NCBI GenBank assembly: GCA_002413045.1 | Contig: DHWF01000027.1 | Coordinates: 41,413-105,412, forward strand | DNA from: Chloroflexi bacterium UBA5189 | GTDB taxonomy: Bacteria; Chloroflexota; Limnocylindria; Limnocylindrales; CSP1-4 | Direction: 5' to 3' | DNA length: 64,000 nt | Part shown: positions 1-22,623 of the stretch, piece by piece | Position numbering within the stretch: position 1 is the first letter of the stretch | How the letters are laid out: each line of letters opens with the position of its first letter | Position numbers and translations under genes: made by a program | The notes under the pieces: generated by a model | What the model was told of the DNA's origin: nothing | Databases searched by the model: none | Seen by the model: only the letters and a program-made list of their open reading frames with translations

Positions 1-349
1 CACCCGGAACGGCCGTATTCAGCTCCTGCTGGAGCTCGGCGACCTCGGTGGTCGGGCCGTCGCCGATCTTGTGGGTTGGCCGCTCCGACGCGGCCCATGG
101 CGGCTTCTGGCCGGCGGGCTTGCCCTTCCGCTGGACATCCATCGTCCGCCGCACGAGCGTCGCGACCGCGGCGTTCCCGGCCGATCGCTGAAGACCGAGC
201 ATGGAGGCGAGCGACGGCTCGTGACCGGGGGTGCCACGTGGGTCGGAGATCACCTCGGCCGGTCGGGGACCCTCGCGCCGGTCGTGGCGAACGGAGTCGC
301 GGGCGATCGCCGGCGGGGAGACGGCGACGGCCTGCCGGTCGCCAGGCAT
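1..349 (-). CDS. partial CDS (first 116 codons, runs off the left edge): putative CIS-associated cargo/effector-like protein
   Basis: The minus-strand frame is open from ATG at 349 (4 nt after the ATPase stop) to position 1. It is absent from the ORF track because it is truncated. Hand translation: MPGDRQAVAVSPPAIARDSVRHDRREGPRPAEVISDPRGTPGHEPSLASMLGLQRSAGNAAVATLVRRTMDVQRKGKPAGQKPPWAASERPTHKIGDGPTTEVAELQQELNTAVPG. From memory, the LQRSAGNAAV motif is typical of N-termini of actinobacterial CIS-linked/DUF4157-type toxin-like proteins. The last residues resemble the start of a peptidoglycan-binding-like helix. GC3 is high. Confidence 0.5.
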   Translation of the reverse strand, partial: MPGDRQAVAVSPPAIARDSVRHDRREGPRPAEVISDPRGTPGHEPSLASMLGLQRSAGNAAVATLVRRTMDVQRKGKPAGQKPPWAASERPTHKIGDGPTTEVAELQQELNTAVPG

Positions 350-353
350 TGGG

Positions 354-2510
354 CTAGCCCGCGGCCCTGGTCATGGCCATGTATTGGCCGAACTCGGCCT
401 CGACGGTGAGCCGGCCGAGCTTCTGGTACTCGCGCTCCGTGGCCCGGATCAGGTCACTCATCGAGACCCCGCGGCCGGCGCCCGCGGCGAGGTACGCCGC
501 CGCGACGCAGATGTTCCGGATATCGCCGCCGGACAGCTTGAACTTGCGGGCCAGGAAGGCGAGGTCGATGTCGTCGCTCTTCGGGACGGCGGGCGGCAGG
601 TTGCGGTCCCACAGGAGGCGCCGGTGCTCTTCCTCAGGCAGCGCGAAGTCCACGATCGCGTCGAGCCGGCGGATGAAGGCCTCGTCGACGTTCGCCCGCA
701 GGTTGGTCGTCAGGATCGCCAGGCCCTCGAACGATTCCATCCGCTGGAGCAGGTAGGCGACCTCCACGTTCGCGTACCGGTCGCGCGCGTCCTTGACCTC
801 GCTGCGCTTGCCGAACAGGGCGTCAGCCTCGTCGAAGAGCAGGACGCCGTTGACCCGGTCGGCCTCGGTGAAGATCCGATCGAGGTTCTTCTCGGTCTCG
901 CCGATGTACTTGTCGACGACCGTCGACAGGTCGATGACGTACAGGTCGAACCCGAGGTCGCCGGCGAGGACCTCCGCCGACATCGTCTTGCCGGTGCCGG
1001 AGTCGCCCGCGAACAGGGCCGTGATCCCCAGGCGCCGGCTGTTGCCGCCGCCCATCCCCCACTCCCCGATCACCTTGTCGCGGTGGCGGGCACGGGCGGC
1101 CAGCTCGCGGATCTGGGCCTCGCTCTCGTCCGGCAGGACAAGGTCCGCCCAGCTCGCCGTCGGCTCGATCCGGCGGGCGAGGCGCTCGAGCCCGGCCGCG
1201 TTCTGAGCGCGGGCGCCGCTCGAGATGTCGGCCACGGTCATCGGGCGCGCGGCCGCGACCGTGGCCCGCCGCGCCGCCTGCGCCGCGCGGGCGATCTGGT
1301 CCGGCGCGAGCCGGAACGCAAGCGTGACGACCGCGGGGTCGATGTCGATGGGCCGGTCGCCGTTGAGCGAGCCGAGCCACAGCTCGTGGCGCTCGGCGAT
1401 GGTCGCGACGGGGGCCTCGAGGAGCAGTGCCGCCTCCCGCGCCCACGCGGGATCCCACGGCCGGTTGCCGATGAGGATCACCGGCGCCCGGCACTCGCCG
1501 AAGGCCCGCACCGCGGCGGCGCCGCGCTCGGCCATCGTCTCGATGGGACCGGCCACGATGCCCGCGCCGCGCAGCCCGGCCTCGCGCGAGGCAGCTGCGG
1601 CGATGTCGCGCGGGTTGTCGTTCACCCCCACGCGGGCGAGGTCGAGCTGGAGGATCGGCCGGCCCAGGCGCTCCAGCGCCGCCGCCGCGAGCGACCGCCC
1701 AGAGGCACCCGCTCGCTCGCGGACGTACATCAGCGGGATCCCGCTGTCGATCGCGCGGGCGAGCATGTCGACGTCGCCGATCGGCGCGGGTCGCGACTCG
1801 ATCAGGAGGTCCGCGATCGCCGCGTCCGGCTTGTCGTCGCCGAGGAGGTGCGCCGTGACCCGATCGGCAACGCGCAGGGAGCGCGTCAGGAACGGCCGGT
1901 CGCCATCCTCAACGAGCACGAGGCCGTTGGAGACGAGGGTGCCGTGCGGCCCGAGCCGGACGCGCTCGGCGCCACTCGCCACGCCGGAGCCGGTCCCTGC
2001 CAGCTCGAGGGCCAGGCCGGCGCTGGCGCGGCGGCGCGAGACGTCGTCGTGCAGGTAGCCGTACAGGCGCTCGAAGCGCGGGTCCAGGTCCGGGGCGAGT
2101 GCGATGAGTAGGAGCTCGACGTCGTCGGCTTCCAGCTGGAACGCCCGCGCGAGCCGGCGCAGGCGAATGTCCTGGCCGGCGGCCTCGGCGGCATCGGCCG
2201 CCCGGTCGAGCGCGGCGAGCGCATCGACCGCGGCAGCGGTCCACGGATCCTCGATGAGGGCCGCGCCGGGGTTCGTGAGCAGGCCATCGACCTGCGCGTC
2301 GGAGATGTACAGCCCGCGGAACCGGTCGCCGGGATCGGGGTCGTCCGCTCGCCGCCGATCCACGGCGCTCCTGACCCGTGCCTCCACGATGGCGACGCGA
2401 CCCAGGAGATACGTCAGCGAGGCATCAACCTCGCGGCGGAGCTCGGCCTCCGGTGGGAGCGCTCCGTGGCCGTTCGCGGCCGCGGGATCCGCCGCCGGCG
2501 CGCGGGTCAT
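354..2510 (-). CDS. CIS-type AAA+ ATPase (Afp15/Pvc15-like)
   Basis: 718 aa. The C-terminal AAA+ module has Walker A GDSGTGKT, Walker B LLFDEAD and a KYIGETEKNL motif. A long non-ATPase N-terminal region precedes it. The gene overlaps the DUF4255 gene stop by 4 nt, the usual pairing in contractile injection system loci. Confidence 0.9.
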   Translation of the reverse strand: MTRAPAADPAAANGHGALPPEAELRREVDASLTYLLGRVAIVEARVRSAVDRRRADDPDPGDRFRGLYISDAQVDGLLTNPGAALIEDPWTAAAVDALAALDRAADAAEAAGQDIRLRRLARAFQLEADDVELLLIALAPDLDPRFERLYGYLHDDVSRRRASAGLALELAGTGSGVASGAERVRLGPHGTLVSNGLVLVEDGDRPFLTRSLRVADRVTAHLLGDDKPDAAIADLLIESRPAPIGDVDMLARAIDSGIPLMYVRERAGASGRSLAAAALERLGRPILQLDLARVGVNDNPRDIAAAASREAGLRGAGIVAGPIETMAERGAAAVRAFGECRAPVILIGNRPWDPAWAREAALLLEAPVATIAERHELWLGSLNGDRPIDIDPAVVTLAFRLAPDQIARAAQAARRATVAAARPMTVADISSGARAQNAAGLERLARRIEPTASWADLVLPDESEAQIRELAARARHRDKVIGEWGMGGGNSRRLGITALFAGDSGTGKTMSAEVLAGDLGFDLYVIDLSTVVDKYIGETEKNLDRIFTEADRVNGVLLFDEADALFGKRSEVKDARDRYANVEVAYLLQRMESFEGLAILTTNLRANVDEAFIRRLDAIVDFALPEEEHRRLLWDRNLPPAVPKSDDIDLAFLARKFKLSGGDIRNICVAAAYLAAGAGRGVSMSDLIRATEREYQKLGRLTVEAEFGQYMAMTRAAG

Positions 2511-3241
2511 CTCGACCGCAGGCCGCGCACCCGGATCGCGATGCCCGGCGTTCGCTTCTTCGGGTCGCCGACGACGGCGCTCGTCGGCAGCAGCTCGTCC
2601 TGCTCGACGACCTTTTCGGTCGCGGCGACCATGCGCCGGCCGCGGCCCCGGACGACCTCGGTTGGGCCCGCGGTGGACGCGACGCCGAGGGTCGGCACCG
2701 TGAGGACTGGCGGCCCGAACGGCGCGTCGCGCTTGATCATGATCGGGGCGGTGACGACGACGTCCAGCGAGGGCTTCAGCTCGCCGCCCAGCGCCGACCA
2801 GACGTCGGCGAGCGAGCGGTCCTGCGATGGCGGCTGCCCGACGTCGATGTAGACCGGCAGGTCCGGCTCCGCGAGGGCGCCCTCGAGGTCCTCGGCCTTG
2901 ATCATCGGGTTGCGGATGAACGCGGACAGCAGCGCCGACAGGAGGCGATGCTCGTCCTCGGGGCGCTGGGTCCAGGCCGTGACGAGATACGACAGCTTGA
3001 ATCGGCGGGGTGGCAGCTGGCGGGCGGCAACCTTGCCATCGACCCCGCGCGCGTCCTCCCAGGCGGGCACCCGCCGCTGGAGGTCTTCGCGGATGTCGTA
3101 CAGGTAGAGGTCGACCGTGGGGCCGTTGCGGCGCGCGACCCAGTCCTTCGTGGGCGCGTCGAACTCCAGCTCGACCTGTGAGCCGTTCAGGGCATCCCGC
3201 TTCACGAGCTTCTCGAGGAGCTCGTCAACCTCATGGATCAT
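2507..3241 (-). CDS. DUF4255-type tail terminator/cap protein (Afp16/Pvc16-like)
   Basis: The ORF track gives 2507..3427. I trimmed it to ATG at 3241 (MIHEVDELLEKLVKRDAL...DLYLYDIRED), the typical N-terminus of this family. The upstream 62 codons are Arg/Gly-rich junk. Confidence 0.85.
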   Translation of the reverse strand: MIHEVDELLEKLVKRDALNGSQVELEFDAPTKDWVARRNGPTVDLYLYDIREDLQRRVPAWEDARGVDGKVAARQLPPRRFKLSYLVTAWTQRPEDEHRLLSALLSAFIRNPMIKAEDLEGALAEPDLPVYIDVGQPPSQDRSLADVWSALGGELKPSLDVVVTAPIMIKRDAPFGPPVLTVPTLGVASTAGPTEVVRGRGRRMVAATEKVVEQDELLPTSAVVGDPKKRTPGIAIRVRGLRSR

Positions 3242-3298
3242 CCGGAGGATCGTCGGGCCACGGCATCCGCCGGCAGAGCCGCGCGAGGGCATCGTTGC

Positions 3299-3337
3299 GG
3301 GCAACCCGCTCGCCCCTTCGGGCAACCCGTCTCGCCC
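3299..3337. promoter_or_regulatory. two near-identical 18-nt direct repeats with 21-nt phasing in the divergent CIS promoter region
   Basis: GGGCAACCCGCTCGCCCC lies at 3299-3316 and GGGCAACCCGTCTCGCCC at 3320-3337. Both sit in the 184-nt gap between the minus operon start (3241) and the sheath start (3426). The repeat is certain. Its operator function is inferred. Confidence 0.45.
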
Positions 3338-3425: not shown

Positions 3426-4952
3426 ATGCCGCAGTACCTGTCGCCCGGCGTCTATGTCGAGGAAGTCGAGTCCGGCTCCAAGCCGATCGAGGGCGTGGGC
3501 ACGGCCGTCGCCGCCTTCGTCGGCCTCGCAGCCCGAGGCCCGGCCAACGCGCCGACGCTCGTCACCAACTGGAGCCAGTTCACTCAGACGTTCGGCGAGT
3601 TCGTCGAGAACTCGTACCTGGCGCACGCCGTCTACGGCTACTTCCTGAACGGTGGCGGCGCGTGCTACGTCGTGCGCGTCGGAGCGGACGGGGCGATGCC
3701 CGCGGCCCAGGCCGAGCTCGCCAGCGGCAAGGACAAGGGCACGCCCGCGTACCGCGCCACTTCGCTCGAGGCCGGGCCGGCCGGCAACGACATCACGATC
3801 GATATCCAGCCCTCCTCGGAGACGTCCGAGAGCACCTTCAAGCTCGTCGTCAACCAGGGCGGCAAGCCGGTCGAGGTCTTCGACAACGTCACCTCCGGCA
3901 AGGGCAAGAACAACGTCATCACCCAGGTGAAGGCGACGTCCAAGCTCATCCGGCTCGAGGAAGTCGGCACCGCCAGCGCGGTCGAGCGCGTCCCGGCCCA
4001 GGGCTCGATGAGCCTGTCCGGCGGCGGCAGCAGCGTCCCGGTCCGTGTGACCCCCGATGACTACGTCGGCAACTCGGCCGATCGGACCGGCTTCGCCGGG
4101 CTCGAGGCCGTCGACGAGGTCACGATGCTGAGCGTGCCCGACCTGATGGCCGTGTACCAGCAGGGCATCATCGACCTCGAGGGCGTCCAGGCCGTGCAGC
4201 TGGCGATGATCGCCCACGCCGAGCTGATGGGCGACCGCGTCGCCATCCTCGACGCGCCGCCATCGCTCAACGCGCAGCAGATCAAGGAGTGGCGGGTCGA
4301 CAAGGCCGGCTACGACTCCAAGTACGCGACGCTGTACTGGCCGTGGGTCAAGGTCTTCGATCCGCTCAGCGGCACGGCGATCTTCGTTCCCCCGAGCGGT
4401 CACGTTGCCGGCATCTGGGCCCGCAGCGACGACACGCGGGGCGTGCACAAGGCGCCGGCCAACGAGGTCATCCGCGGCGCGATCTCGCTCGAGCTCAACA
4501 TCACCAAGGGCGAGCACGATCAGCTCAACCCCAACGGCATCAACTGCATTCGCTCGTTCCCGGGTCGGGGCATCCGGGTATGGGGCGCGCGCACGATCTC
4601 GAGCGACCCGTCCTGGCGCTACCTCAACGTTCGCCGGCTCTTCAACTTCGTCGAGGAGTCGATCTTCGAGGGCACCCAGTGGGTCGTCTTCGAGCCGAAC
4701 GACCAGCGCCTGTGGGGCCGCGTCAAGCGGACCATCAACTCCTTCCTGCTCCGCGTCTGGCGCGACGGCGCGCTCTTCGGTGCGACGCCCGACCAGGCGT
4801 TCTTCGTCAAGTGCGACGAGGAGAACAACCCACCGGAGGTTCGCGACGCCGGCCAGCTCATCGTCGACATCGGGATCGCCCCGGTGAAGCCCGCTGAGTT
4901 CGTCGTCTTCCGGATCGCCCAGTTCTCGGGCGGCGCGGCGGTCTCCGAGTAG
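3426..4952 (+). CDS. contractile tail sheath protein
   Basis: 508 aa. It has the classic sheath N-terminus MPQYLSPGVYVEEVESGSKPIEGVGTAVAAFVGLA and the C-terminal INCIRSFPGRGIRVWGARTIS motif. RBS is GAAGGGG. Confidence 0.95.
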   Translation: MPQYLSPGVYVEEVESGSKPIEGVGTAVAAFVGLAARGPANAPTLVTNWSQFTQTFGEFVENSYLAHAVYGYFLNGGGACYVVRVGADGAMPAAQAELASGKDKGTPAYRATSLEAGPAGNDITIDIQPSSETSESTFKLVVNQGGKPVEVFDNVTSGKGKNNVITQVKATSKLIRLEEVGTASAVERVPAQGSMSLSGGGSSVPVRVTPDDYVGNSADRTGFAGLEAVDEVTMLSVPDLMAVYQQGIIDLEGVQAVQLAMIAHAELMGDRVAILDAPPSLNAQQIKEWRVDKAGYDSKYATLYWPWVKVFDPLSGTAIFVPPSGHVAGIWARSDDTRGVHKAPANEVIRGAISLELNITKGEHDQLNPNGINCIRSFPGRGIRVWGARTISSDPSWRYLNVRRLFNFVEESIFEGTQWVVFEPNDQRLWGRVKRTINSFLLRVWRDGALFGATPDQAFFVKCDEENNPPEVRDAGQLIVDIGIAPVKPAEFVVFRIAQFSGGAAVSE

Positions 4953-4999: not shown

Positions 5000-5434
5000 A
5001 TGCCAACGACCGATCCCCTGCTACAAGGCAACGTCCTGCTCGACATCGATGGTGTCGGCGTCGTCGCCAACTTCACCTCGGTGTCGGGCGTCTCGAGCGA
5101 GATCGAGATCGTCGACAACCCGTACGTCAACGAGCAGGGCAAGATCACGATCGCCAAGCTGCCCGGCAAGCCCAAGACGCCGACGGTCACGCTCAAGCGC
5201 GGCCTCACCGGCGCCCACGAGATCTGGGACTGGCACACCACCGTCATGCAGGGCACGCCGGACCGCCGCAACGGCTCGGTCATCCTGATGAACACGATGG
5301 GCGAAGAAGTCCTTCGCTACAACTTCACCAACGCCATGGTCAGCAAGATCAGCCTGTCCGAGGGCGGCGCGACCGCCAGCGGCGTGCAGATCGAGGAAGC
5401 GACGCTCGCCTGCGAGACGCTGATCAAGGGCTAG
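5000..5434 (+). CDS. tail tube protein (T4 gp19 / Afp1-like)
   Basis: 144 aa with LLDIDGV...FTSVSGVSSEIEIV...VTLKRG, typical of CIS/phage tube proteins. It lies directly after the sheath gene and has RBS AAGGGAG. Confidence 0.9.
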   Translation: MPTTDPLLQGNVLLDIDGVGVVANFTSVSGVSSEIEIVDNPYVNEQGKITIAKLPGKPKTPTVTLKRGLTGAHEIWDWHTTVMQGTPDRRNGSVILMNTMGEEVLRYNFTNAMVSKISLSEGGATASGVQIEEATLACETLIKG

Positions 5435-5438
5435 GGCG

Positions 5439-5900
5439 GTGACATCCGTGATGGCACCCGAGCTCCACCGTGAGCTCGGGGGCCTTCCCTCAGCCATGGG
5501 CGGATCGCCGGGCCAGGCGCCCGGTGGCCTCCAGACCGAATACGCGTTCGTCCTGCCGCGGGGCTTCGTCGACGCAGCCGGCACCGTCCATCGCGACGGG
5601 GTCATGCGCCTGGCGACGGCTCGCGACGAGATCACGCCGCAGCGCGATCCGCGGGTCCGCGAGAACGAGTCGTACTTGACGGTGCTGCTGCTCTCGCGGG
5701 TCGTGACCAAGCTCGGCTCGCTGACGCAGGTCCATACCGGCGTCATCGAAGGCCTCTTTGCCTCGGACCTGGCGTTCCTGCAGGACCTCTACCGGCGGAT
5801 CAACCAGGAGGGCCACACGGCCGCCGCGGTGACCTGCCCGTCGTGCAGCCATGAGTTCACCGTCGACGTGGCGGGTGAGCAGCGCCTGGGGGAATCGTGA
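5439..5900 (+). CDS. conserved CIS protein, tail-assembly-chaperone-like (P2 gpE slot)
   Basis: 153 aa located between the tube gene and the long Ala/Pro/Ser-rich gene, as in the P2 order FI-FII-E-E'-T. The MRLATARDEI...LAFLQDLYRRIN pattern resembles tail chaperones. The C-terminus carries a CPSC motif. Function is by synteny and resemblance only. Confidence 0.5.
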   Translation: MTSVMAPELHRELGGLPSAMGGSPGQAPGGLQTEYAFVLPRGFVDAAGTVHRDGVMRLATARDEITPQRDPRVRENESYLTVLLLSRVVTKLGSLTQVHTGVIEGLFASDLAFLQDLYRRINQEGHTAAAVTCPSCSHEFTVDVAGEQRLGES

Positions 5901-6055
5901 CGTACGCGACCGACCGCCTCTTCGAAGAGGTCGCGTACGTGGCCTACCACTTCCACTGGCCGATGGACACGATCCTCGACCTCGAGCATCCGCTCCGGCA
6001 GCGGTTCGTCGAGGAGATCGGGAAGATCAACCGCCGGATCGCCGAGGAGGGCTGA
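5897..6055 (+). CDS. small conserved CIS-associated protein (52 aa, DUF6760-like by recollection)
   Basis: Not in the ORF track (below its size cutoff). GTG at 5897 overlaps the upstream TGA (GTGA). Hand translation: MTYATDRLFEEVAYVAYHFHWPMDTILDLEHPLRQRFVEEIGKINRRIAEEG. Codons are GC3-rich. The ORF ends 6 nt before the next gene. Confidence 0.6.
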   Translation: MTYATDRLFEEVAYVAYHFHWPMDTILDLEHPLRQRFVEEIGKINRRIAEEG

Positions 6056-6061: not shown

Positions 6062-8209
6062 GTGCGCCTGCCGTTCGGTCTCGGGCGCCGCTCGAGCTCC
6101 GGAGACGGGGCCGCGAGCGACGACTCGAGCGCGGGCTTCGACACCGGGTTCGCCGATACCGGGATCGCCGTGGCGGTCCCGGCGTCCAGCCGCGCCTGGG
6201 CGAGCCTGCCGCCGATCCAGCGCACATCGGGCGATATGCCGCTCGTGGCCGCGCCCGGCTCGTTCGCCGAGGCGCTCCCCGGGTCGCAGGGCCTGCCGCC
6301 GATCGTCCAGCCGCTCGGGCATGAGGTGAGCAACCTCGCGACCCCCGGGCTGGTCGTGGCGCGTACGCGGCCCGTGGAGGCGCCATCGACCGGGTCGATC
6401 CCGGCGCCCGTCCAGCGCCGCGCCACTCGTCCGGCGGAGCACGCGCCCGTGCACACCGCCGCGGCACCGGCCTACGCGGCGCCGGTGCCCGACGCTTCGA
6501 TGATCGTGACGCAGGCGCCGGTCCCATCCGCGTCCCCGGAAGCTCCGTCGACGGTGGTCACCTCGACTGCACCCGCCGCACCCGCCGCGCCCGCGCTCCC
6601 AGTGGCACCCCCGATTCGGAGCATGCCGACGGTCTCGCGCCAGGCGATCCACATCCCCGACCGGCCGCTGACGACCGCCGCGAGCGCCGCGCGTCCGGCT
6701 GCAGTGCAGCGAGCCGCCGCAGCGGCAGAGGCAGCGGCTGCGGGCGTTGCGCCACTGTCGATGCCGGTGTCGGGCGGCATGCGCCGCGTCCCGAGCGGGA
6801 CGTCGCCTTCGATGCCGGTCGTGAGCCGCCAGGCCGCGCCGACCCAGCCCGCACTGGCGACCCCGACGGCGCTCGCACCCGCGGCATCCACCACAACGGC
6901 GGCGGTGCCGGTTGCGCAACGCTCCCCAGCGAGCACGCCCACCGAGCCCTCCGCGTCCGGGCGAACGACACCATCGATGACCGAGCCACCGCGCCTGGGT
7001 CTCGGGGCGCCGCTCGCGGCCGTGCCAGCGTCGGCGCGGCCGGTCGGTGCGGCTCCGCCGCCGGGTCCCGTGGTCAGCCGATCCACGACCTCCGGTCCGA
7101 TGCCCGTTGCCGCCTCGAACCTGCTTCCGACAGGGCAGCGATCGACGAGCTCCGAAGCCCTCGCGAGCGCCGCCGCAGCGGCCGCATTGCCGATTGCGGG
7201 TCGCGGCGCCGGCCGTCGAGGCGGGATGGCAGGCACCGAGCCCGTGGCGGGAGCGGCGCCGGCGACTGCGGCCATCCAGCGGCTGGCCGCGCTCCCGCAC
7301 CTGCCGGTTGCGCGGCCGGCGGCATCGCATTCGGCCCCGGCAGCTGCCGGCGGCTCGGCCAGCACCTCAGCCGGCACGGCACCCGCAACCTCGAGCTCGG
7401 TGTCTGGCTCGCCCATCGCGACGCCATCGGCCGCATCAGTCCAGACATCGGTCGCCCCGGAGATCCGCCCGATCGCCGCCGACAACCCGATCCGGCCGTC
7501 CTTCGTGCTCCAGCGCTCGCCATCCGACGACGAATCCGATGACGACGCCGGCGGCGACGCGGCACTGCCGAGCCCGTGGTGGGCACCGGCATCGGAATCG
7601 CACGCGACCGCGGGATCGTTCTTCGGAGCGGGCTTCGACGGCGGCTCGGCCGCGGTCCAGCGGACCACCTCGAGCGACAGCGCGCGCGCGGCGAGCCCGG
7701 CGACGTTCGGCTCCCGCGCGACGGTCTTCGGCTCCCGCGCCACGGCTATGAGCTCGGCCTCCGGCGGAGTGCCAGCAGCCGCGACGCTCCAGCGCTCCAG
7801 CGGTCCAGCGACGCGGCCGCTGCCGCCCGCCCGCGGAGCGGTCCCGGATTTCGCGACCCGGTCGACGCAGGCATCGTCTGCCGCCCTCGCGACGGCATCG
7901 GCCACCGGCTCCCCGACTCCAATGACCGTTCCGGGCGTGACCTCGGGGCCCGTAGTCCAGATGAGCAGAGACGGTGTGCGGCCAGAGGCACCGGGCGCGT
8001 CCTTCGCCGCTGCCGCCCCGACCGTGCAGCGCGAGAACACGCGCGGGACGCAGCGCGGTGGGCCGGCCGGCACTTCGGGTGGACGGGGCCACTCCGAGCG
8101 CGAGCTTGAGGAGCTCGCGCAGGCGCTGTTCTCACGGATCCGCGGCCGGCTCCGAAACGAGCTCATCCATGACCGTGAGGCCAAGGGCCTCACGTTCGAC
8201 AACGTCTGA
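6062..8209 (+). CDS. Ala/Pro/Ser/Thr-rich low-complexity CIS protein with conserved C-terminal helix (tape-measure slot or lumen protein)
   Basis: 715 aa, tightly packed in the operon (6 nt after the previous stop, 8 nt before the next start). GC3 is high in this frame. It has eight [IVL]QR tripeptides plus AQR/GQR/TQR variants. The C-terminus ELEELAQALFSRIRGRLRNELIHDREAKGLTFDNV is the only clearly ordered-looking segment. It occupies the position of gpT in P2-like tail modules. Confidence 0.6.
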   Translation: MRLPFGLGRRSSSGDGAASDDSSAGFDTGFADTGIAVAVPASSRAWASLPPIQRTSGDMPLVAAPGSFAEALPGSQGLPPIVQPLGHEVSNLATPGLVVARTRPVEAPSTGSIPAPVQRRATRPAEHAPVHTAAAPAYAAPVPDASMIVTQAPVPSASPEAPSTVVTSTAPAAPAAPALPVAPPIRSMPTVSRQAIHIPDRPLTTAASAARPAAVQRAAAAAEAAAAGVAPLSMPVSGGMRRVPSGTSPSMPVVSRQAAPTQPALATPTALAPAASTTTAAVPVAQRSPASTPTEPSASGRTTPSMTEPPRLGLGAPLAAVPASARPVGAAPPPGPVVSRSTTSGPMPVAASNLLPTGQRSTSSEALASAAAAAALPIAGRGAGRRGGMAGTEPVAGAAPATAAIQRLAALPHLPVARPAASHSAPAAAGGSASTSAGTAPATSSSVSGSPIATPSAASVQTSVAPEIRPIAADNPIRPSFVLQRSPSDDESDDDAGGDAALPSPWWAPASESHATAGSFFGAGFDGGSAAVQRTTSSDSARAASPATFGSRATVFGSRATAMSSASGGVPAAATLQRSSGPATRPLPPARGAVPDFATRSTQASSAALATASATGSPTPMTVPGVTSGPVVQMSRDGVRPEAPGASFAAAAPTVQRENTRGTQRGGPAGTSGGRGHSERELEELAQALFSRIRGRLRNELIHDREAKGLTFDNV

Positions 8210-16527: not shown

Positions 16528-16546
16528 GCTCGCCGAACCGGCGAGC
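16528..16546. terminator. 8-bp GC-rich hairpin between convergent genes (weak terminator candidate)
   Basis: GCTCGCCG-AAC-CGGCGAGC lies in the 27-nt gap between the 16518 (+) and 16546 (-) gene ends. There is no U-tract on either side, so function is uncertain. Confidence 0.3.
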
Positions 16547-19500
16547 TACGCGGAGTTCGCGGCGAGCTCCGGGCTGAGGCCCAGCCCCTCCAGGATCGAG
16601 GCGTATTCCCGCCGGTCGCGGCTCGCGGCGCCCGAATCGCCGGCCTGATCCCTCGCCGAGATCAAGACGCGCCACAGCGGGTCGTGGAATCGATCGAGCT
16701 CGAGGCCGCGCCGGCAGACCCGGATCGCCTCCTCGAGGTCGCCGGCCGCGGCGGCATCGTCGGCGACGATCGTCGCCCCCTCGACGGCCTCGCGGCGGAA
16801 GTGCTCGCGCCGCTCGACGGCCCACTCGGCGGGGCCGTCCTGCGGCAGCAGGTCGCCGCGGTACAGCATGAGCGCGGTCGCGAAATCGGCCGTGCCGCCG
16901 CCGAGCCGCCCGGAGCCGTTGCGCAGGCCGCGTGCCCGAGCCATCGCCCGCTCGAACCTGCCCACGTCGACCTGGTCCGGGTCGACCGCCAACCGGTAGG
17001 CGTCGCCCTCTCGAGCGATCAGCCGGGTCGCGTCACCGCCGAGGGCATCCGAGAACAGGCCGCGCAGCGAGGACACCGCGACGTGCAGGCTGCGCGCGCC
17101 GGTCGCCGCGTCGACCTCCGGCCACAGCGCCTCCTGGATGACCTCGCGATGGATCGCCACGCCCGGCCGCGCTGCGAGGAAGCGCAGGACGGCGCGAGCG
17201 CGAGGCTTGATCCCGTCGAGCGCGATCGGGCGGCCATCGACCTCGACGCCGAAGCCCCCGAACAGGTGGAATCCGAGCCCGGCCGTCGACGGCGTGGCGC
17301 GAGCCGAAATGCCCCGGGGCAGCGGCGAGATGGCGACGCTCCCGTCTCGCCCGACCGTCGCGCGAGCGCCGGGCGGGGCGGCGTCGACGGCGTCGGTTGG
17401 TGCGTCGGCCGCGGTCGCGGCGTCGTGGCTCGAGGCGGGCACCCGGAGACCGGTCTCGACCTGGACCGCGTCCGCCAGCGATTCGTATTCGTCGCGCCGC
17501 TGGGGATGCGCGGTCGCGAGCGCGAGGTACGCGAGCAGCCGCGGGCCGGACGTGCCGGTCGCGCGCGCCAGGCTCTCGACGCCGAGGGCCGTCTCGCGCG
17601 CTTCGGGGGCGCCTGATTCGGCCATGCCGTACGCCTGCAGCCCTCGCGCAAAGGCCTCGAGGACGCCCACGCCAAGGCGCCGCGCGATCGCAGCGGCCTG
17701 CTCGCCGGCGGCCGCCCGCACCTCGCCCGTCTCGATCGCCTCGGCGGCGGCTCCGGCCGTGCCGATCGGCCGGGCGACCCAGGCCGACACGAGCGCGCCG
17801 AACAGGGCACCCCACGGGTCCGCGTCGGGTCCGAGGGCGTCGATCGAGGGCGCTTCGGCGGCGGTCGCGCCATCGACCTCGATCCCACCGATCCGCGCGG
17901 CGACCCGCCCCATCGACGCCAGCCACGGAAGCCCGGTGCGCTCCGCGATGTCGATCGCGTCCGCCAGCTGGTGGTCGGCGCCCGGCTCGCCCGAGAGCAG
18001 GGCCGCGACGGCGGCCGCTACGGCGGCCGCTGCACCGAGCACGGGATCGAGCTCTTCGAGCTGGCTCGCTGCGGTGAGGGCCCGCTTTGCCTCGGTGACC
18101 TCGCCGGCCGCGAGCAGGAGCAGCCCGCGGACGAGCTCGCGGTGCTCCGGGTCGAGGCGTGGATCGCGCGCCGCGGCGACCGGCTCGCGGACGAGGCCGG
18201 CCCGCAGGACGCCGGTCCAGTCCGCGGGTGGAATTGCAACCGGATCGAGCCAGGCGGCGAGCGCGAGGCGCTCCCGCCGGGCGGTCGAGCCCGCCGTGGA
18301 CGCTCCGAATGCCGCCTCGGCGCGCGTGTAGGCGTCCTGTGCCGCCGCCCAGCGACCATCGGCACGTGCGCGGCGTGCCGACGCGAGGGCGAGCCATGGG
18401 CTGTCGCGGACGAGCGCGGCCGGCAGCAGCTCCAGCCGCAGGCCCGGCCCAACCGCGACCTGCTCGCCCCGGTTGCCGACCAGGCTCGAGACGGCCGGCC
18501 AATCCTCGGCGCGGCAGTATCCGACGAGCGCCTCGGGGAGGGCACCGCTGCGCTCGAGCAGGCTCGCGGCGCGCTGATGCCGCCCGCGTGCCTCAACCTC
18601 GCCGACCTCCTCGACGAGCATCCGGTCCAGGTGCGATCGCAACACCTCGTGGTACCGGTACGAGCCTTCGCCCTCGTCGACGACGACCGTGAACAGCTGG
18701 CGCCGGGCGAGCTCCTCGAGCAGGAGGGCGCTCCCCCGCCGGTCGAGGAGTTGGTCGCACAAGTCGCCGGTGAGCCGCGGCAGCACGCACGTGTCGATGA
18801 GGAACCGCCGGAGCTCATCGGGCAGCTCGGCGAGAACGTTCCGGGTCAGGTACTCGCGCAACAGCCGCGTGCTCGACCCGACGCTGCCGAGAATCCGGCG
18901 CCGCTCGTCGGCGGACTTGCCGCGCGTCGCGAGGTGGAACAGCTGGAGCCCCGCCGCCCAGCCTTCGGTGCGGCGCGCCAGGACGGCGAGCTCGCCGGGC
19001 GGCACGGGATCCCGATAGAAGTCACGGAACAGGCGCTCGACCTCCCACGACCGGAAGCGCAGATCGTCGCCCTCGATCTGGAGCAGGTCGCCGGAGACGC
19101 GCAGGCGCGACAGGTTGAAGTCCGGCCGCACGCGTGATGCGGCGAGGATTCGCAGCCACGGCGGCGCGTAGTCGACCAGCCGGCTGAGGGCCGCCTCGGC
19201 GGCCGTGCCCTCGAGGGCGTGGAGGTCGTCGATCACGAGCGCGGCCGGGCCGCCGGACCAGCGCTCGAGCGCCCGCGCCGCGTCCTCGACGTCCGTCCAG
19301 CCGCCGGGCAGTCCCGGGAGCACCGCGCCGAGCGATGCCTCGAGGTGGCGGAGCATCCGCTGCGGGTCGTCGTCCCACGTTTCGGCGCGATACCAGGCGA
19401 CCGGCATCCGGGTCGACGCGGCAAACCGAGCCAGGAGGGTGGTCTTGCCGGCGCCCGCCGGAGCGATCACGAGGGTCAGGCGGTGGCGCTCCACCGCGGC

Positions 19501-19644
19501 TGCGAGCTGGGCTTCGAGGCGCTCACGCGGGAGTGCCGGAGCGGCGGGAGCGCGCACCTTCGCGGGTACCACCGCAGGCGCCTCGCCACCCGGCAGGACT
19601 GCGCGGCGGACACGGGCATCGTGCCGATCCTCTGGCAACGTCAA
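16546..19644 (-). CDS. STAND-type regulator: MalT-like NTPase + helical repeat region + C-terminal SARP (OmpR-type wHTH + BTAD) module
   Basis: 1032 aa. It has Walker A APAGAGKTT and Walker B LVIDDLH with a MalT-like N-terminal third, and a long Ala/Leu-rich helical middle. The C-terminus runs FHLFGGFGVEVDGRPIAL...RAVLRFLAARPG..IHREVIQEALWPE...YRL..VDVGRFE, followed by the BTAD-like YRGDLLPQDGPAEWAVERREHFR...DPLWRVLISA. TTG start. Confidence 0.85.
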   Translation of the reverse strand: MTLPEDRHDARVRRAVLPGGEAPAVVPAKVRAPAAPALPRERLEAQLAAAVERHRLTLVIAPAGAGKTTLLARFAASTRMPVAWYRAETWDDDPQRMLRHLEASLGAVLPGLPGGWTDVEDAARALERWSGGPAALVIDDLHALEGTAAEAALSRLVDYAPPWLRILAASRVRPDFNLSRLRVSGDLLQIEGDDLRFRSWEVERLFRDFYRDPVPPGELAVLARRTEGWAAGLQLFHLATRGKSADERRRILGSVGSSTRLLREYLTRNVLAELPDELRRFLIDTCVLPRLTGDLCDQLLDRRGSALLLEELARRQLFTVVVDEGEGSYRYHEVLRSHLDRMLVEEVGEVEARGRHQRAASLLERSGALPEALVGYCRAEDWPAVSSLVGNRGEQVAVGPGLRLELLPAALVRDSPWLALASARRARADGRWAAAQDAYTRAEAAFGASTAGSTARRERLALAAWLDPVAIPPADWTGVLRAGLVREPVAAARDPRLDPEHRELVRGLLLLAAGEVTEAKRALTAASQLEELDPVLGAAAAVAAAVAALLSGEPGADHQLADAIDIAERTGLPWLASMGRVAARIGGIEVDGATAAEAPSIDALGPDADPWGALFGALVSAWVARPIGTAGAAAEAIETGEVRAAAGEQAAAIARRLGVGVLEAFARGLQAYGMAESGAPEARETALGVESLARATGTSGPRLLAYLALATAHPQRRDEYESLADAVQVETGLRVPASSHDAATAADAPTDAVDAAPPGARATVGRDGSVAISPLPRGISARATPSTAGLGFHLFGGFGVEVDGRPIALDGIKPRARAVLRFLAARPGVAIHREVIQEALWPEVDAATGARSLHVAVSSLRGLFSDALGGDATRLIAREGDAYRLAVDPDQVDVGRFERAMARARGLRNGSGRLGGGTADFATALMLYRGDLLPQDGPAEWAVERREHFRREAVEGATIVADDAAAAGDLEEAIRVCRRGLELDRFHDPLWRVLISARDQAGDSGAASRDRREYASILEGLGLSPELAANSA

Positions 19645-19724: not shown

Positions 19725-21146
19725 TCAATGCCAGGTCGGCGAGATGTCGGAGCTCGGACCGGTCGTGAGCGTGACGATCTTGTTGTTGGTGCGATCGAGG
19801 ATGTACAGGTCCTCGCTGCCCGCCGTGCCGCCCGAGAAGACGATGTAGCGCCCGCCCGGCGAGAAATAGGGATGGCGCTCGTCACCCTTGATGCTCGGCA
19901 GCGCCGTGATCTGGCCGGAGGCGATGTCCAGGATGAACAGGTCGAACCCGCTGCCGCTGCGATTGCTCGCGAAGACGACCTGGGTGCCGTCCGGCGAGAC
20001 CGCCGGGTCGCGATCCTCGAACGAATCGGTCGTCAGGTTCTTGACCGTCTTCGAGGCGACGTCAAAGATCATCAGCTCCGCCGCGTTGCCGTCGCCCTCG
20101 ACGAAGACGATCGACTTGCCGTCGGGCGTGAAGACGGGCTGGGTGTCAACGACATCGTTGTTGGTCAGCGGCTGGGAGGCCACGCTTGCCGCCAACCCAT
20201 CGATCCGGATCTCGAGATCGGTCCCGTTGTTGTCGCGGGAGCGAATGCCGGCGAACGTCAGCTGCTTGCCGTCCGGGGACCACGAGGCGCCGGAGTCGCC
20301 GAGGCCGGTGGAGTGCTGGACATATGACTTCGTTGCCACGGCCACGATGCGCAGGCCGGGCTTCACGGAGTAGATGACCTGCTTCCTGTCGTACGACAGG
20401 CTGGGGTCGAAGGCCGAAGGGCTCGTGCTCGTGATCCGAACGGACCTCGACTTGCCATCGGCGTTGATGACGTAGATCGCGCAGGCCGTGCCGTCGCTCG
20501 CGCAACGAGCGAACGCCACCAGGCCGGTCCGGGCGCCCTCCTTGAACGTGAGTGACGCAGCGCTCGGCGTGACCGTCGCTGCAACGGACGGGAGCGTGGT
20601 CGCGGCGGGCAGCGATGCGCGCGCGGTCGGCGCGAGGGTGGCCGCGGGCGAGCCGCCGAACGCGAGCACGCCGATCAGCGCGAGGGCGACGACGACCGCT
20701 GCGGCGCCGAGGCCGATCGCGACCGGCGAGATCTTCCGGGCGACCGGCGCCGGGGCCGGCGGTGGGGGCGGAGGCGCAGCCGGCTTGAGCTCATTGGCGC
20801 ACTTGCGGCAATACGTCCGCGTGGCGTCGTTGACCGTCGCGCAGACGCTGCAGATGATCGTGGGTTTGCCTGACGAGACGTCGTCCTCGACGGTATTCGG
20901 ATCGGCGGCGCCGGCCGCCGAGGTCGGCGCCGGCCTGCCCTGCGCCGCGCCGGTCCCGAGATCCCGGCGAGCCCCGATTCCCTGACCGGGCACGACCGTG
21001 TCGTCCGGACCCGGTGCAACGGCCTCGGGCTTCGTGGCCTCCTCGACGATGGCCGTCGCCTCGGCGGGGCTCAGGGGGCTGCCGCACGTCCCGCAGAACA
21101 GGGCCGCGGCCTCGTTCTCCGAGCCACAGACCTTGCACTTGATCAC
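19725..21146 (-). CDS. double zinc-ribbon / single-TM / TolB-like (PD40) beta-propeller protein
   Basis: Trimmed to GTG at 21146 (RBS GGAGAGGGGA). It has VIKCKVCGSENEAAALFCGTCG and IICSVCATVNDATRTYCRKC ribbons, then the TM segment ISPVAIGLGAAAVVVALALIGVLAF. PD40-like repeats follow (SWSPDGKQLTF, FTPDGKSIVFV, VSPDGTQVVFASNRSG.FDLFILD, YFSPGGRYIVFSG). Confidence 0.85.
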   Translation of the reverse strand: MIKCKVCGSENEAAALFCGTCGSPLSPAEATAIVEEATKPEAVAPGPDDTVVPGQGIGARRDLGTGAAQGRPAPTSAAGAADPNTVEDDVSSGKPTIICSVCATVNDATRTYCRKCANELKPAAPPPPPPAPAPVARKISPVAIGLGAAAVVVALALIGVLAFGGSPAATLAPTARASLPAATTLPSVAATVTPSAASLTFKEGARTGLVAFARCASDGTACAIYVINADGKSRSVRITSTSPSAFDPSLSYDRKQVIYSVKPGLRIVAVATKSYVQHSTGLGDSGASWSPDGKQLTFAGIRSRDNNGTDLEIRIDGLAASVASQPLTNNDVVDTQPVFTPDGKSIVFVEGDGNAAELMIFDVASKTVKNLTTDSFEDRDPAVSPDGTQVVFASNRSGSGFDLFILDIASGQITALPSIKGDERHPYFSPGGRYIVFSGGTAGSEDLYILDRTNNKIVTLTTGPSSDISPTWH

Positions 21147-21228
21147 GCCTGAAGGTCCCCTCTCCGAAATCCGATATGACGGTGCGAGGCAGTGTAAGTC
21201 GGCAGAAACCCTGCTGTAGACTCCGAGC

Positions 21229-22623
21229 ATGAGTGTCCTCGCGACGATCGAGCCCAGCGAGCTCCAGGTCGACGCGGGCAACGAGACCTCGCTCGTCGTT
21301 CGGGTTCGCAACCGCGGCACGATCGTCGACCAGTTCGACATCAAGGTCGTCGGACCGACGGGTCACTGGGCGACGGTCGACCCGCCGTCGCTGCGCCTCT
21401 TCCCGGACAAGGAGGGCGAGGCAAGGGTCACCTTCCGGCCGCCGCGCGCCCCGGACCCGATGGCCGATGTCTACCCGTTCGGCATCGCCGTTCGCGCCGC
21501 CTCCGACACGAGCGCCATGACGGTCGAGGAGGGCCACGTCGCGGTCGCGCCGTTCGTGCAGCTGACCTCCGAGGTGGTTCCCCAGACTTCACGCGGCGTC
21601 TTCTCCGGCGCGCACGACGTGACCGTCCACAACGTGGGCAACGCGGTCGCCGAGGTAACGGTCCTGGCGAGCGATCCGGACCGGCTCCTGAACTTCGAGG
21701 TCACGCCCGCGCGCGCCGGCCTGAAGCCCGGCGGCTCCGCAACGCTGCGCACCAAGGTGAAGCCCAAGTCGACCTTCTTCATGGGCGGCGCGAAGCGCAT
21801 CCCGTTCTCGATCCAGGTCAATGAGCCGACCGCCGGTTCCTACCAGATTCCCGCGACCATCGAGCAGCGCCCGATCATCCCCGGTTGGGTCAAGCCCGTC
21901 GGCGCGCTCATCCTCGCGTCGGTCGCCGCCGTCGCGTTCCTGCCCAAGATCCTGTTCCCGCCGCAGCCGACCGCTGCGCCGACGCAGGCAGCGGTCGTCA
22001 CGCCAAGCCCGGTGATCACGCCGACGCCCGCCCCCGTCACCGCCCCACCCACCGAGGCGCCGACCGCTGCGCCTCCCACGCAGGAGAACTTCGGGCCGCC
22101 GAACAAGCTGACGGTCGCGGGCGATGTGGGCGGGCTGAGCTCGTCTCTCGGGATCACGTTCCGGTGCCCGCCCAAGGACGCATGCCGTGACGACGTGAAG
22201 ACGCGGGTGCTCCAGGTGCTGTCCGGTCTTGGCGTCAACGCCGCGGGGGCCCAGCTCACGAAGTTCATCACGACCAACGTGGGCACGCTCCCGGTCGTCG
22301 CGTCTTGGACGGACCGATATCCGTACACGGCCAACGGCGCGCAGTTCTTCGCCAAGCAGGTCGCGATCGACCTCGCGCCGAAGCTGGCCGGACAGCCCGC
22401 TTATGCATACATCCAGGACGACAACGGGACGGTTCACTGGTTGACGATCCCGGACCAGCTCGCGGACACGCTGCTCAATCAGCTGTACAACCTGCCGGTT
22501 GCGCCCGCGCCCACCGTCGACCCCGGCGCGATCGTGAACGGTCAGGTCTTCTATGCGAACTTCTACAGCGTTGCGCAGTACGACGGCTTCCAACTGTCGA
22601 CGCTGCCGTTCACGGGGCCGTAG
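21229..22623 (+). CDS. bitopic membrane protein: two Ig-like/CARDB-like N-terminal modules, TM, Pro/Thr linker, C-terminal globular domain
   Basis: 464 aa. The repeated pattern LQVDAGNETSLVVRVRNRGTIVDQFDIKVVG and HDVTVHNVGNAVAEVTVLASDP marks the N-terminal modules. The TM segment is VGALILASVAAVAFLPKILF, followed by a PT-rich linker and a ~170-aa C-terminal domain. It is divergent from 19725..21146. TAGACT lies 6 nt before the ATG, so a leaderless start is possible. Confidence 0.8.
   Translation: MSVLATIEPSELQVDAGNETSLVVRVRNRGTIVDQFDIKVVGPTGHWATVDPPSLRLFPDKEGEARVTFRPPRAPDPMADVYPFGIAVRAASDTSAMTVEEGHVAVAPFVQLTSEVVPQTSRGVFSGAHDVTVHNVGNAVAEVTVLASDPDRLLNFEVTPARAGLKPGGSATLRTKVKPKSTFFMGGAKRIPFSIQVNEPTAGSYQIPATIEQRPIIPGWVKPVGALILASVAAVAFLPKILFPPQPTAAPTQAAVVTPSPVITPTPAPVTAPPTEAPTAAPPTQENFGPPNKLTVAGDVGGLSSSLGITFRCPPKDACRDDVKTRVLQVLSGLGVNAAGAQLTKFITTNVGTLPVVASWTDRYPYTANGAQFFAKQVAIDLAPKLAGQPAYAYIQDDNGTVHWLTIPDQLADTLLNQLYNLPVAPAPTVDPGAIVNGQVFYANFYSVAQYDGFQLSTLPFTGP

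Follow-up and report, generated by a model that had tools for sequence, protein, structure and literature searches.

A contractile injection system locus assigned to the Streptomyces-type subtype IId in a Limnocylindrales-like Chloroflexota bacterium

The 64-kb stretch of contig DHWF01000027.1 analysed here (64,000 nucleotides at full length, hereafter the window) carries near its left end the genes of a contractile injection system (CIS). As the G+C content is ~70% throughout the window, genes were chosen by third-position GC (GC3) and checked against the gene calls on the source contigs, and the proteins were assigned using Pfam (gathering scores), NCBIfam and sequence searches against all solved structures (PDB chains). 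The left flank was read for 9.6 kb beyond window position 1, window and flank together making up about 74 kb. The ATPase of the system, Cis15, is encoded on 7 public contigs; JGI contig 3300012004 Ga0120134_1000004 (380,870 bp; soil metagenome) is identical to the window over the first 12.5 kb, and ENA contig ERZ27248618 k119_157908 (132,437 bp) differs from it at 5 positions. Relatives were collected with Cis11 as the query against one genome per species, which yielded 580, and synteny and conservation were compared across 80 related loci from Chloroflexota, Dormibacterota and Actinomycetota, including Streptomyces. Related loci are designated by L-numbers: L001 and L002 are the two closest genomes, L004 and L006 are farther Chloroflexota, and L081 and L082 are the source contigs.

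Gene calls and GC3 indicate that positions 3426-14525 of the plus strand form a single tightly packed operon. It begins with a single gene for the contractile sheath Cis2 (508 aa; 3426..4952; Pfam Phage_sheath_1 and Phage_sheath_1C), separated by 47 nt from the gene for the inner tube protein Cis1a (144 aa; 5000..5434; Phage_T4_gp19, 3e-23). Beyond three less familiar genes, described below, the operon continues with Cis1b, the Afp5-like tube-initiator layer (157 aa; 8218..8691; gp19, 3e-24); Cis7, an Afp7-like tube initiator with a LysM-like C-terminus (260 aa; 8701..9483; CIS_tube, 2e-25); the VgrG-like spike Cis8 (604 aa; 9493..11307; Phage_base_V, 7e-28, and GPD), whose stop codon overlaps the start of the gp25-like gene, with no PAAR gene next to it; the gp25-like sheath initiator Cis9 itself (130 aa; 11307..11699; GPW_gp25, 6e-24); and the baseplate wedge proteins Cis11 (660 aa; 11710..13692; Baseplate_J) and Cis12 (gpI-like, 277 aa; 13692..14525; Tail_P2_I, 9e-16; TIGR02242, 6e-27). 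From the first tube gene to cis12 the gaps at gene junctions range from -4 to +16 nt, and 64 nt separate cis12 from the gene that follows. The C-terminal tail of Cis12, ~80 aa long (14290-14525), disordered and rich in Ala, Pro, Thr, Glu and Lys, is common to L001 and L002, which also share the shortened accessory protein discussed below, and is not found in L004, L006 or the solved Streptomyces coelicolor Cis12 (190 aa).

The three remaining plus-strand genes of the operon lie between cis1a and cis1b. A conserved 149-aa protein in the tail-chaperone position (5451..5900), 62-89% identical in 47 loci, belongs to no family found by Pfam or NCBIfam searches, and its gene overlaps by 4 nt that of a 52-aa DUF6760 protein (5897..6055; Pfam, 2e-13), which is 60-98% identical in 48 loci. 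These two proteins are among the most conserved of the locus, and their layout recalls a phage tail-chaperone pair. The third gene encodes a 715-aa Ala/Pro/Ser-rich protein in the tape-measure (Cis14/Tme) position (6062..8209), which has no match in Pfam or NCBIfam; its C-terminus, with the helix ELEELAQALFSRIRGRLRNELIHDREAKGLTFD, is conserved in 39 loci. This protein contains ten [VILMA]Q[RM] motifs, compared with 0.69 +/- 0.82 in 2000 shuffles. The motifs are spaced along the disordered Ala/Pro/Ser-rich chain, and orthologues carry 3-10 of them.

The opposite strand encodes Cis16, the Afp16-like cap (DUF4255/Pvc16_N; 244 aa; 2507..3241; Pfam, 2e-39), and Cis15, an Afp15-like AAA+ ATPase (718 aa; 354..2510; Pfam WHD variant, 2e-28, and AAA, 2e-23) that shows 56-82% identity among related loci. 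For the cap gene, the most likely start is 3241 and not 3427, as residues 1-204 of the protein align to residues 1-204 of Cis16 in the structure 9GTS. Four nt past the cis15 stop begins, on the same strand, a gene cut by the window edge (1..349; 116 codons), which encodes the N-terminus of a candidate effector. On L081 and L082 this protein is complete at 589 aa and comprises a leader LGLQRSAGNAAV, two PG_binding_1 domains (Pfam, 2e-17) implying binding to peptidoglycan (PG), and a C-terminal HEFGHLLGLQDEY zinc-protease (HExxH) motif. Judging from the gene arrangement, this predicted PG-binding protein is translationally coupled to the cap and the ATPase in the divergent operon.

Most of this gene content had been recognised in an earlier note on the same DNA. 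Pfam together with GC3 bears out all its structural assignments (sheath, two tubes, initiator, VgrG, gp25, J, gpI, DUF4255 cap and AAA+ ATPase), and the truncated effector-like open reading frame (ORF) that it placed at the window edge has indeed proved to be the N-terminus of the 589-aa protein. Several details require revision. The cap keeps its DUF4255 identity with the later start given above; the LysM-type initiator is sustained by the CIS_tube match and by its closest solved chain, the LysM protein Cis7, with the LysM domain itself being weak (NCBIfam, 2e-3); the 149-aa, 52-aa and 715-aa genes had been missed; and the description of most junctions as overlapping or shorter than 12 nt suits the run from the tube gene to cis12 but not the two wider gaps on either side of it. 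The locus was also called complete, which is true of the core set, but it continues about 9 kb to the left of the window.

Multiple comparisons link this core to the CIS of Streptomyces. Eight structural proteins (sheath, Cis1a, Cis1b, Cis7, Cis8, Cis11, Cis12 and Cis16) were searched against the solved structures, and for all except Cis1a, that is seven of the eight, Streptomyces CIS chains are the best solved relatives, by tens to more than 100 orders of magnitude. The sheath matches 8BKY (8bky_A) at 5.9e-201 over residues 1-504, 8BL4 at 9.9e-198 and the 9EZM sheath at 1e-121, compared with ~1e-50 for Pvc2, Afp2, the Anabaena thylakoid-anchored CIS (tCIS) and AlgoCIS, and ~1e-15 for T4 gp18 and R-pyocin. 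For Cis11 the best chain, 9gtp_1K of 9GTP, aligns over the full length (8.8e-214), and the best chains for the other proteins are 9GTR for Cis8 (9gtr_q, 5e-74), 9GTS for Cis16 (8e-57, against 8e-10 for Pvc16), and 9GTP for Cis12 (9gtp_E, 2e-37 over residues 50-206), Cis7 (9gtp_P, 8e-27) and Cis1b (9gtp_a, 6e-23, against 1e-9 for Afp5). The systems that rank next score about 1e-10 to 1e-53. The models 8BKY and 8BL4 are those of Casu 2023 (PMC10066040), and 9GTP, 9GTR and 9GTS those of Casu 2025 (PMC12237407). Cis1a matches all solved tubes weakly, the AlgoCIS and tCIS tubes as well as that of the S. coelicolor-type system (CIS-Sc). This tube protein is 84-97% identical in the nearest clade (L001, L002, L004, L006 and L010 compared) and 27-43% identical to other IId tubes, in loci where the sheath retains 59-77% identity; tubes are fast-evolving across the IId lineage in general.

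The comparison of gene content and order points in the same direction. CIS-Sc is described as subtype IId of the extracellular CIS (eCIS); its particles are assembled free in the cytoplasm, and the system lacks Afp13 fibres, a typical Afp14 and ClpV (Casu 2023, PMC10066040; Casu 2025, PMC12237407). The window holds the full IId core set, with cis1a, cis1b, cis2, cis7, cis8, cis9, cis11, cis12, cis15 and cis16 all above Pfam gathering scores; the gene order is the same in the 80 related loci; and Cis11 is 51-55% identical to its counterparts in actinomycete IId loci. We assign the locus with near certainty, as far as sequence comparison goes, to eCIS subtype IId, that is, to the CIS-Sc lineage, in agreement with the greater proximity to the cytoplasmic Streptomyces CIS than to the Afp/PVC type suggested in the earlier note.

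No PAAR protein was detected in the 64-kb window either by tblastn or with a hidden Markov model (HMM) built from 19 related-locus PAARs; a possible hidden PAAR at 26277-26591 (HMM E 0.009) was rejected as a Ser-rich ORF that is antisense to coding sequence and has no Pfam match. Within CIS-Sc, PAAR (Cis10) is found only in S. venezuelae, and the system brings about the death of the producing hypha under stress (PMC10066040; PMC12237407). Pfam scans of the window and the 9.6-kb left flank revealed no tail fibre, ClpV, CIS_TMP or Tss domains, and no gene in either encodes head, terminase, portal, integrase, lysis or TssJLM domains. The sheath is a single 508-aa phage-type protein, and a split TssB/TssC sheath of the type VI secretion system (T6SS) is not present. 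The structural proteins were also scanned for hydrophobicity, which is only a crude criterion, and none showed a membrane helix or a signal-peptide-like segment at the N-terminus. Thus, with the defining features of Afp/PVC-type systems, T6SS and prophage tails each sought and none of them found, the locus is none of these. The corresponding statements of the earlier note, on the absence of fibre, PAAR, ClpV, T6SS membrane complex, phage head and lysis genes, hold over window and flank, and its statement on signal peptides agrees with the crude scan of the structural proteins. That note had also allowed for a prophage tail module if head or packaging genes lay beyond position 1; the flank contains effector-like and regulatory genes and no head, packaging, integrase or lysis genes, so this reversal does not arise.

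Downstream of cis12 lie the accessory genes. In the Streptomyces loci compared, the gene after cis12 encodes CisA, which consists of a zinc ribbon, a disordered Pro-rich region, a second zinc ribbon, a WWxR motif, a transmembrane (TM) helix and an F5/8-type-C domain. CisA is bitopic, having a cytoplasmic N-terminus, a TM helix and a sugar-binding C-terminal domain (CTD), is present in 75-79% of Streptomyces IId loci, and in S. coelicolor is required for contraction and function (PMC12237407). The CisA architecture recurs at this position in about 50 of the 80 loci compared, and in all three phyla. CisA-type proteins from these phyla (e.g., L079 6394-7695, L080 7217-8566, L006 12645-14924 and about 50 others) contain two CxxC...CxxC zinc ribbons, the first at the extreme N-terminus and the second followed by a WW[RK][RK] motif and then the TM helix; the CisA paper calls the cytoplasmic region 'largely unstructured' and does not mention zinc.

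In the window, this position is occupied by a gene for a 642-aa soluble protein (14590..16518, plus strand; Pfam Zn_Ribbon/DZR) that we regard as derived from CisA. It consists of an N-terminal zinc ribbon, a ~525-aa stretch of degenerate KAAAE-type repeats (net charge -44; 45% Ala and 16% Glu; encoded with a 15-nt unit that recurs 59 times) and two zinc ribbons, ending in ...PWWKRS, and an HMM of the second CisA ribbon with its juxtamembrane motif (ZnR2+WWRR) matches the last ribbon at 1.9e-13. Both the membrane helix and the F5/8-type-C ectodomain are lacking from this protein. We considered whether the missing parts might be encoded separately and rejected this: a CisA TM+CTD HMM found no match in six-frame translations of window and flank (best E 0.18), and only 27 nt lie between the stop of 14590-16518 and the next gene. 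Among the loci with a CisA-type gene at this position, TM helix and CTD are missing only from the window, L001 and L002; in the latter two CisA is likewise shortened (307 and 711 aa), whereas L004 and L006 have full-length CisA. The same shortened form in the two closest genomes indicates a stable trait of the clade and not an assembly error.

The next gene, on the minus strand (16546..19644), encodes a 1032-aa regulator (Pfam AAA_22, Trans_reg_C and BTAD; NCBIfam MalT N-terminus, 1e-49) that combines a MalT-like STAND ATPase N-terminus with a C-terminal OmpR/SARP-type winged helix and BTAD. It recurs in the same place and on the same strand in about 50 of the 80 loci, with 37-39% identity in Streptomyces. 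Beyond it, also on the minus strand (19725..21146), is the gene for a bitopic protein with two zinc ribbons, a TM helix at about residues 135-170 and a TolB-like PD40 propeller (Pfam PD40, 1e-23, and DZR; TIGR02800, 9e-30); this architecture is CisA-like with a different ectodomain, and orthologues are found in eight related Chloroflexota loci (L001, L002, L004, L006, L007, L009, L021 and L030). A second bitopic protein, Ig-TM (21229..22623, plus strand; Pfam Cep192_D3; AF2 mean pLDDT 78), comprises two ASH/PapD-like immunoglobulin (Ig) domains (1-213, without a signal peptide), a TM helix at 221-242, a disordered linker and an alpha/beta C-terminal domain, and Foldseek searches with the model recover ASH/PapD-like and generic Ig folds only. 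Its N-terminal Ig pair is conserved in 21 related loci, including those of Acidimicrobiia and Pseudonocardiaceae (Actinomycetota), and of 110 homologues with a source name all are annotated as 'hypothetical protein' save for one 'zinc-ribbon domain'. Ig-TM was rejected as a CisA homologue because the conserved part is the Ig pair, with no zinc ribbons and no CisA similarity; the CisA relative is the 14590-16518 protein. The earlier note did not recognise these distal genes from described CIS loci, which holds only in part, since the 14590-16518 gene is CisA-derived, the regulator recurs in about 50 of the 80 loci and Ig-TM in 21. Immediately after the Ig-TM gene, at 22651-24051, lies a gene for a 466-aa N6/N4 DNA methyltransferase, which is there in L001 and L002 (83-85%) and not in other loci, followed at 24091-24312 by a 73-aa ORF without a family; no restriction partner was seen.

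On the other side, the CIS locus extends about 9 kb into the left flank. The 589-aa gene overlaps by 4 nt a gene for an unknown 245-aa protein, a candidate immunity factor. The flank further encodes a 241-aa DUF4157/eCIS_core protein (Pfam, 3e-33; L081 14768-15493), whose leader, LMHLQRLAGNAGV, is related to that of the 589-aa protein, as well as two unknown proteins (240 and 489 aa), a GerE/LuxR-type regulator of 215 aa, and two double-zinc-ribbon proteins. One of the latter (573 aa; L081 19064-20785) shows, by eye, a hydrophobic TM-like segment after the second ribbon; the other (618 aa; L081 21819 onward) runs off the end of the locus. All four double-zinc-ribbon proteins of window and flank lie within the CIS neighbourhood, with none in the 40-kb housekeeping region. 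Other related CIS loci also have the DUF4157 protein (55-63% identity, adjoining the sheath gene) and the GerE protein (50-55%). Both effector candidates share an LQRxAGN leader (LGLQRSAGNAAV, LMHLQRLAGNAGV), in which LQR is the same motif as in the tape-measure-position protein; going by this similarity, LQR may be a packaging or tube-lumen docking motif.

The divergent promoter between cis16 and the sheath gene contains an operator-like element (3287..3326) with GGGCA at 3287, 3299 and 3320, the last of these being the right half of a 14-bp palindrome of the TGCCC-N4-GGGCA type, CGCCCCTTCGGGCA (3311-3324), about 110 nt upstream of the sheath ATG. Of 46 sequences drawn from three phyla, 44 have the palindrome with no more than one mismatch at 71-170 nt upstream of the sheath ATG, and 21 of these copies are perfect; the background of 0.023 per 100 nt implies about one chance match in 46 such regions. 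The flank contains a perfect copy in the intergenic region between the GerE and zinc-ribbon genes and a one-mismatch copy upstream of the DUF4157 gene; in L081 coordinates the two flank copies are at 14676 and 18935, which is about 2.2 and 6.4 kb to the left of the window. We rejected SARP-type direct repeats as an explanation of the GGGCA elements, since what is conserved is a palindrome, a better fit to a dimeric helix-turn-helix protein. The paper that defines SlpR of S. lividans mentions no binding site (Nagakubo). Taken as a sequence motif, TGCCC-N4-GGGCA is probably an operator for transcription control, with the LuxR-type and/or the STAND-SARP regulator of the locus as the candidate binder. 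A copy upstream of 14590 was discarded as a member of the regulon, being kept in 2 of 24 relatives and probably due to chance, as was autoregulation of the GerE gene via the palindrome, which is not seen in seven other loci. In two Pseudonocardiaceae loci (L058 9547, L072 8028) the palindrome lies 84 nt upstream of the Ig-TM homologue, and this position hints that the Ig-TM family belongs to the CIS regulon there; the region upstream of the Ig-TM gene in the window (21147-21228) has no copy.

As for the host, the best Cis11 relatives among the 580 are from Candidatus Limnocylindria/Limnocylindrales metagenome-assembled genomes (MAGs; 84% and 81% identity), followed by other Chloroflexota and Dormibacterota (56-65%) and only then by Actinomycetota (51-55%, with Streptomyces at 51-53%). 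The lipoyl synthase of the window is 88-90% identical to Candidatus Limnocylindrales proteins, and named Ig-TM homologues come from the same organisms. From these three affinities, the host is a Limnocylindrales-like member of Chloroflexota and, on the genomic context, its CIS is chromosomally encoded. An origin in Streptomyces or another actinomycete, which the 70% GC and the CIS-Sc similarity might suggest, was dismissed because the nearest CIS loci and LipA are those of Limnocylindria/Limnocylindrales MAGs. The region from 24 to 64 kb encodes ordinary metabolism (an enolase-superfamily enzyme, a luciferase-like oxidoreductase, a Castor/RCK channel, acyl-CoA enzymes, adenosine deaminase, lipoyl synthase, a 2-oxoacid dehydrogenase complex, PlsY, GlpD, and MFS and ABC transporters), and these housekeeping genes share the GC content of the CIS locus. 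They include a cluster at 39660-46354 of lipoyl synthase with E2, E1-beta, E1-alpha and E3 of the 2-oxoacid dehydrogenase complex. A single tRNA gene (31539-31612, minus strand; 61.5 bits, the only Rfam match) lies 9 kb from the end of the CIS locus, with no associated integrase or repeat. In the literature searched, we found no paper that links Limnocylindria with contractile injection systems; IId loci have been published from Chloroflexi, as have intracellular CIS from Roseiflexus and other members of the phylum (Gaisin 2026, PMC12998442).

We propose that the locus represents the main operon set of a IId CIS of the CIS-Sc lineage that acts in the cytoplasm and is directed at its own cell, a reading to which, as a whole, we give a probability of about 70%. 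By analogy with the published systems (Casu 2023/2025; Vladimirov 2023; Nagakubo 2021-2026; Gaisin 2026), the structural proteins would assemble into a fibre-less, bullet-shaped particle free in the cytoplasm of the producer, with assistance from the AAA+ ATPase Cis15 in assembly or loading. Loading of cargo would probably depend on the LQRxAGN leader that the candidates share, on the DUF4157 adaptor and on the tape-measure-position protein, and the tape-measure-position, DUF4157 and leader-bearing proteins can be predicted to be cargo or loading factors. A stress or developmental signal could then bring the particle to the cytoplasmic membrane, where contraction would release envelope-targeting cargo, and the producer cell would be killed or lysed. 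This self-killing mode, when judged separately and by the same analogy, is only slightly favoured. Since the CisA orthologue is devoid of its membrane part, we assign the coupling to the membrane, if any, to the neighbouring bitopic proteins, that is, the double-zinc-ribbon PD40 protein and the Ig-TM protein with its two Ig domains, an assignment that is tentative and made with low confidence.

Several observations weigh against this proposal. The membrane helix and ectodomain of CisA are absent from the window and the two nearest genomes; the tube protein Cis1a is unusually diverged; the effector candidates differ from Sco4256-4258, and the PG-binding protease is equally apt for extracellular attack; and the organisms in which IId biology has been published are filamentous or mat-forming (PMC12998442). 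Localisation and function are predicted here from the genes, and the placement in IId comes from best matches and synteny. With respect to CisA, this protein is accessory and not universal even in Streptomyces, so that its shortfall does not exclude membership in the lineage.

The foremost rival explanation is a true extracellular CIS, the particles of which would be set free when a subpopulation lyses and would deliver the PG-binding protease or DUF4157-associated cargo into other microbes or eukaryotes, in the manner of Afp, PVC, MAC and AlgoCIS. The core is indeed a generic eCIS set that includes the Afp15-like ATPase and the Afp16 cap, the SLPs of S. lividans, which belong to this lineage, have an effect on competition with fungi (Nagakubo), and the membrane part of CisA that is needed for intracellular firing in S. 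coelicolor is missing here. Given that a PG-binding metalloprotease, with its cell-wall-binding domains and HExxH motif, fits outward firing through the own membrane and attack on foreign cells alike, we retain this explanation as unlikely but not negligible. It is opposed by the lack of a tail fibre or any other receptor-binding protein, the usual fibre slot being held by the zinc-ribbon protein, by the lack of a lysis cassette in the window or left flank, and by the intracellular nature of every member of the lineage that has been characterised (in S. coelicolor, S. venezuelae, S. lividans and Roseiflexus).

The two bitopic proteins with cytoplasmic N-terminal domains that are encoded beside the baseplate genes, the further zinc-ribbon protein with a TM-like segment in the left flank and the extra disordered tail of Cis12 could also be taken to signify a stably membrane-anchored T6SS- or tCIS-like system, in which the zinc-ribbon/TM and Ig-TM proteins would serve as a permanent anchor and the tube would fire outward. 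We consider such an arrangement highly improbable: TssJ/L/M, a TssB/C split sheath and ClpV are all lacking; the Cis11 extensions that anchor tCIS are absent, with Cis11 aligning end to end to the protein of the free-floating CIS-Sc; and in that closest model accessory proteins are not part of the purified particles. The remaining candidate, a prophage tail module or an R-type tailocin, is effectively refuted. Sheath, tube, gp25, J, I and VgrG genes are of phage-tail ancestry, but capsid, portal, terminase, integrase, holin and endolysin genes are absent from the about 74 kb, the eCIS-specific genes for the Afp15-like ATPase, the DUF4255 cap and DUF4157 are there, the similarity to the T4 and pyocin sheaths is only ~1e-15, synteny is kept across three phyla, and the locus is flanked by housekeeping genes of equal GC.

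Within the self-directed cytoplasmic CIS that we favour, a more speculative scenario, which we regard as unlikely, is that the membrane adaptor/sensor has been taken apart in the Limnocylindria clade, with membrane contact and sensing being supplied in trans by interchangeable bitopic proteins. The CisA orthologue would have become soluble, its N-terminal ribbon being separated from the other two by a long acidic single helix that varies in length from about 200 to 600 aa among the three genomes, and the bitopic partners would share a zinc-ribbon or Ig-pair head and vary in their ectodomains (the TolB-like propeller, the alpha/beta domain and others in the flank). If this were the case, all CisA-type proteins would dock on the baseplate through a conserved module, the zinc-ribbon heads, and the ectodomain would be a swappable stress sensor that sets the time of CIS firing.

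The present analysis extends the Streptomyces-type self-directed CIS, as predicted here, to Limnocylindria, an abundant uncultured soil and freshwater class of Chloroflexota, and the related loci place the same system with CisA-type genes in many MAGs of Chloroflexota, Dormibacterota and Actinomycetota. The natural CisA variant, with the zinc-ribbon part kept and the membrane and sensor parts lost, provides a handle on which half of CisA contacts the baseplate. Furthermore, the PD40 and Ig-TM proteins are two conserved bitopic accessory proteins that are as yet uncharacterised, and the 14-bp palindrome upstream of the sheath gene in three phyla is a testable candidate site for a cluster-specific regulator.

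Comparison with the known systems puts these features into perspective. The class I eCIS of Serratia and Photorhabdus (Afp/PVC) share a homologous core with the locus (tube, sheath, Afp5/7/8/9/11/12, the Afp15 ATPase and the Afp16 cap), but possess three sheath genes (Afp2-4) where the window has one, and their Afp13 fibre and Afp10 PAAR are missing here, with no recognisable Afp14; the similarity to them is 40-150 orders of magnitude weaker than that to CIS-Sc. The SLPs of S. lividans (Sle1/Sle2 cargo, SlpR; Nagakubo 2021, PMC8505568; Nagakubo 2026, PMC13277306) likewise include a small DUF4157 protein near the sheath, beside helix-rich proteins, and a LuxR-type cluster regulator. The DUF4157 and LuxR/GerE proteins of the flank parallel Sle2 and SlpR/SCO4263, the 215-aa GerE protein and the helical 489-aa protein being possible counterparts of SlpR and Sle1; the genes are arranged differently, and the bldA/TTA logic is confined to Streptomyces.

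The intracellular CIS of the Chloroflexota/Deinococcota clade, Roseiflexus castenholzii among them (Gaisin 2026, PMC12998442), belong to the same subtype IId, and Roseiflexus to the same phylum as the host of the window. Their particles are fibre-less and intracellular, and horizontal exchange with Streptomyces has been proposed (PMC12998442). No close cisA homologues were reported from Roseiflexus, whereas the window has a truncated CisA and most of its relatives, MAGs of Chloroflexota and Dormibacterota among them, full CisA-type genes; by published description, Roseiflexus is a thermophile, compared with the mesophilic soil/permafrost-type lineage of the host considered here.

The closest parallels are to CIS-Sc of S. 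coelicolor and S. venezuelae (PMC10066040, PMC10020575, PMC12237407), with which the locus shares the component order from Cis2 to Cis12 followed by a CisA-type gene, the two small ORFs and the disordered tape-measure-position protein between Cis1a and Cis1b, the location of Cis16 and Cis15 on the opposite strand, and the lack of a fibre, of ClpV and, as in S. coelicolor, of PAAR. The differences begin with the host phylum, here Chloroflexota, and with the tube, which is about 27-30% identical to Streptomyces-type tubes. In the window, cis16/cis15 are directly divergent from the sheath gene, whereas in Streptomyces the effector genes sco4254-4258 lie between them, and the effector candidates are the PG-binding HExxH and DUF4157 proteins, set apart by description from the Sco4256-4258 type, in which a shared N-terminal domain and one TM helix are combined with a variable toxin or lectin domain. 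The CisA orthologue is without the TM helix and F5/8-type-C ectodomain and possesses a third zinc ribbon and the ~525-aa Ala/Glu/Lys helical repeat, and the genes for the zinc-ribbon PD40 and Ig-TM proteins are additional. The locus is thus a system of known lineage in a class in which it had not been described previously, and the picture of what this system is remains unchanged.

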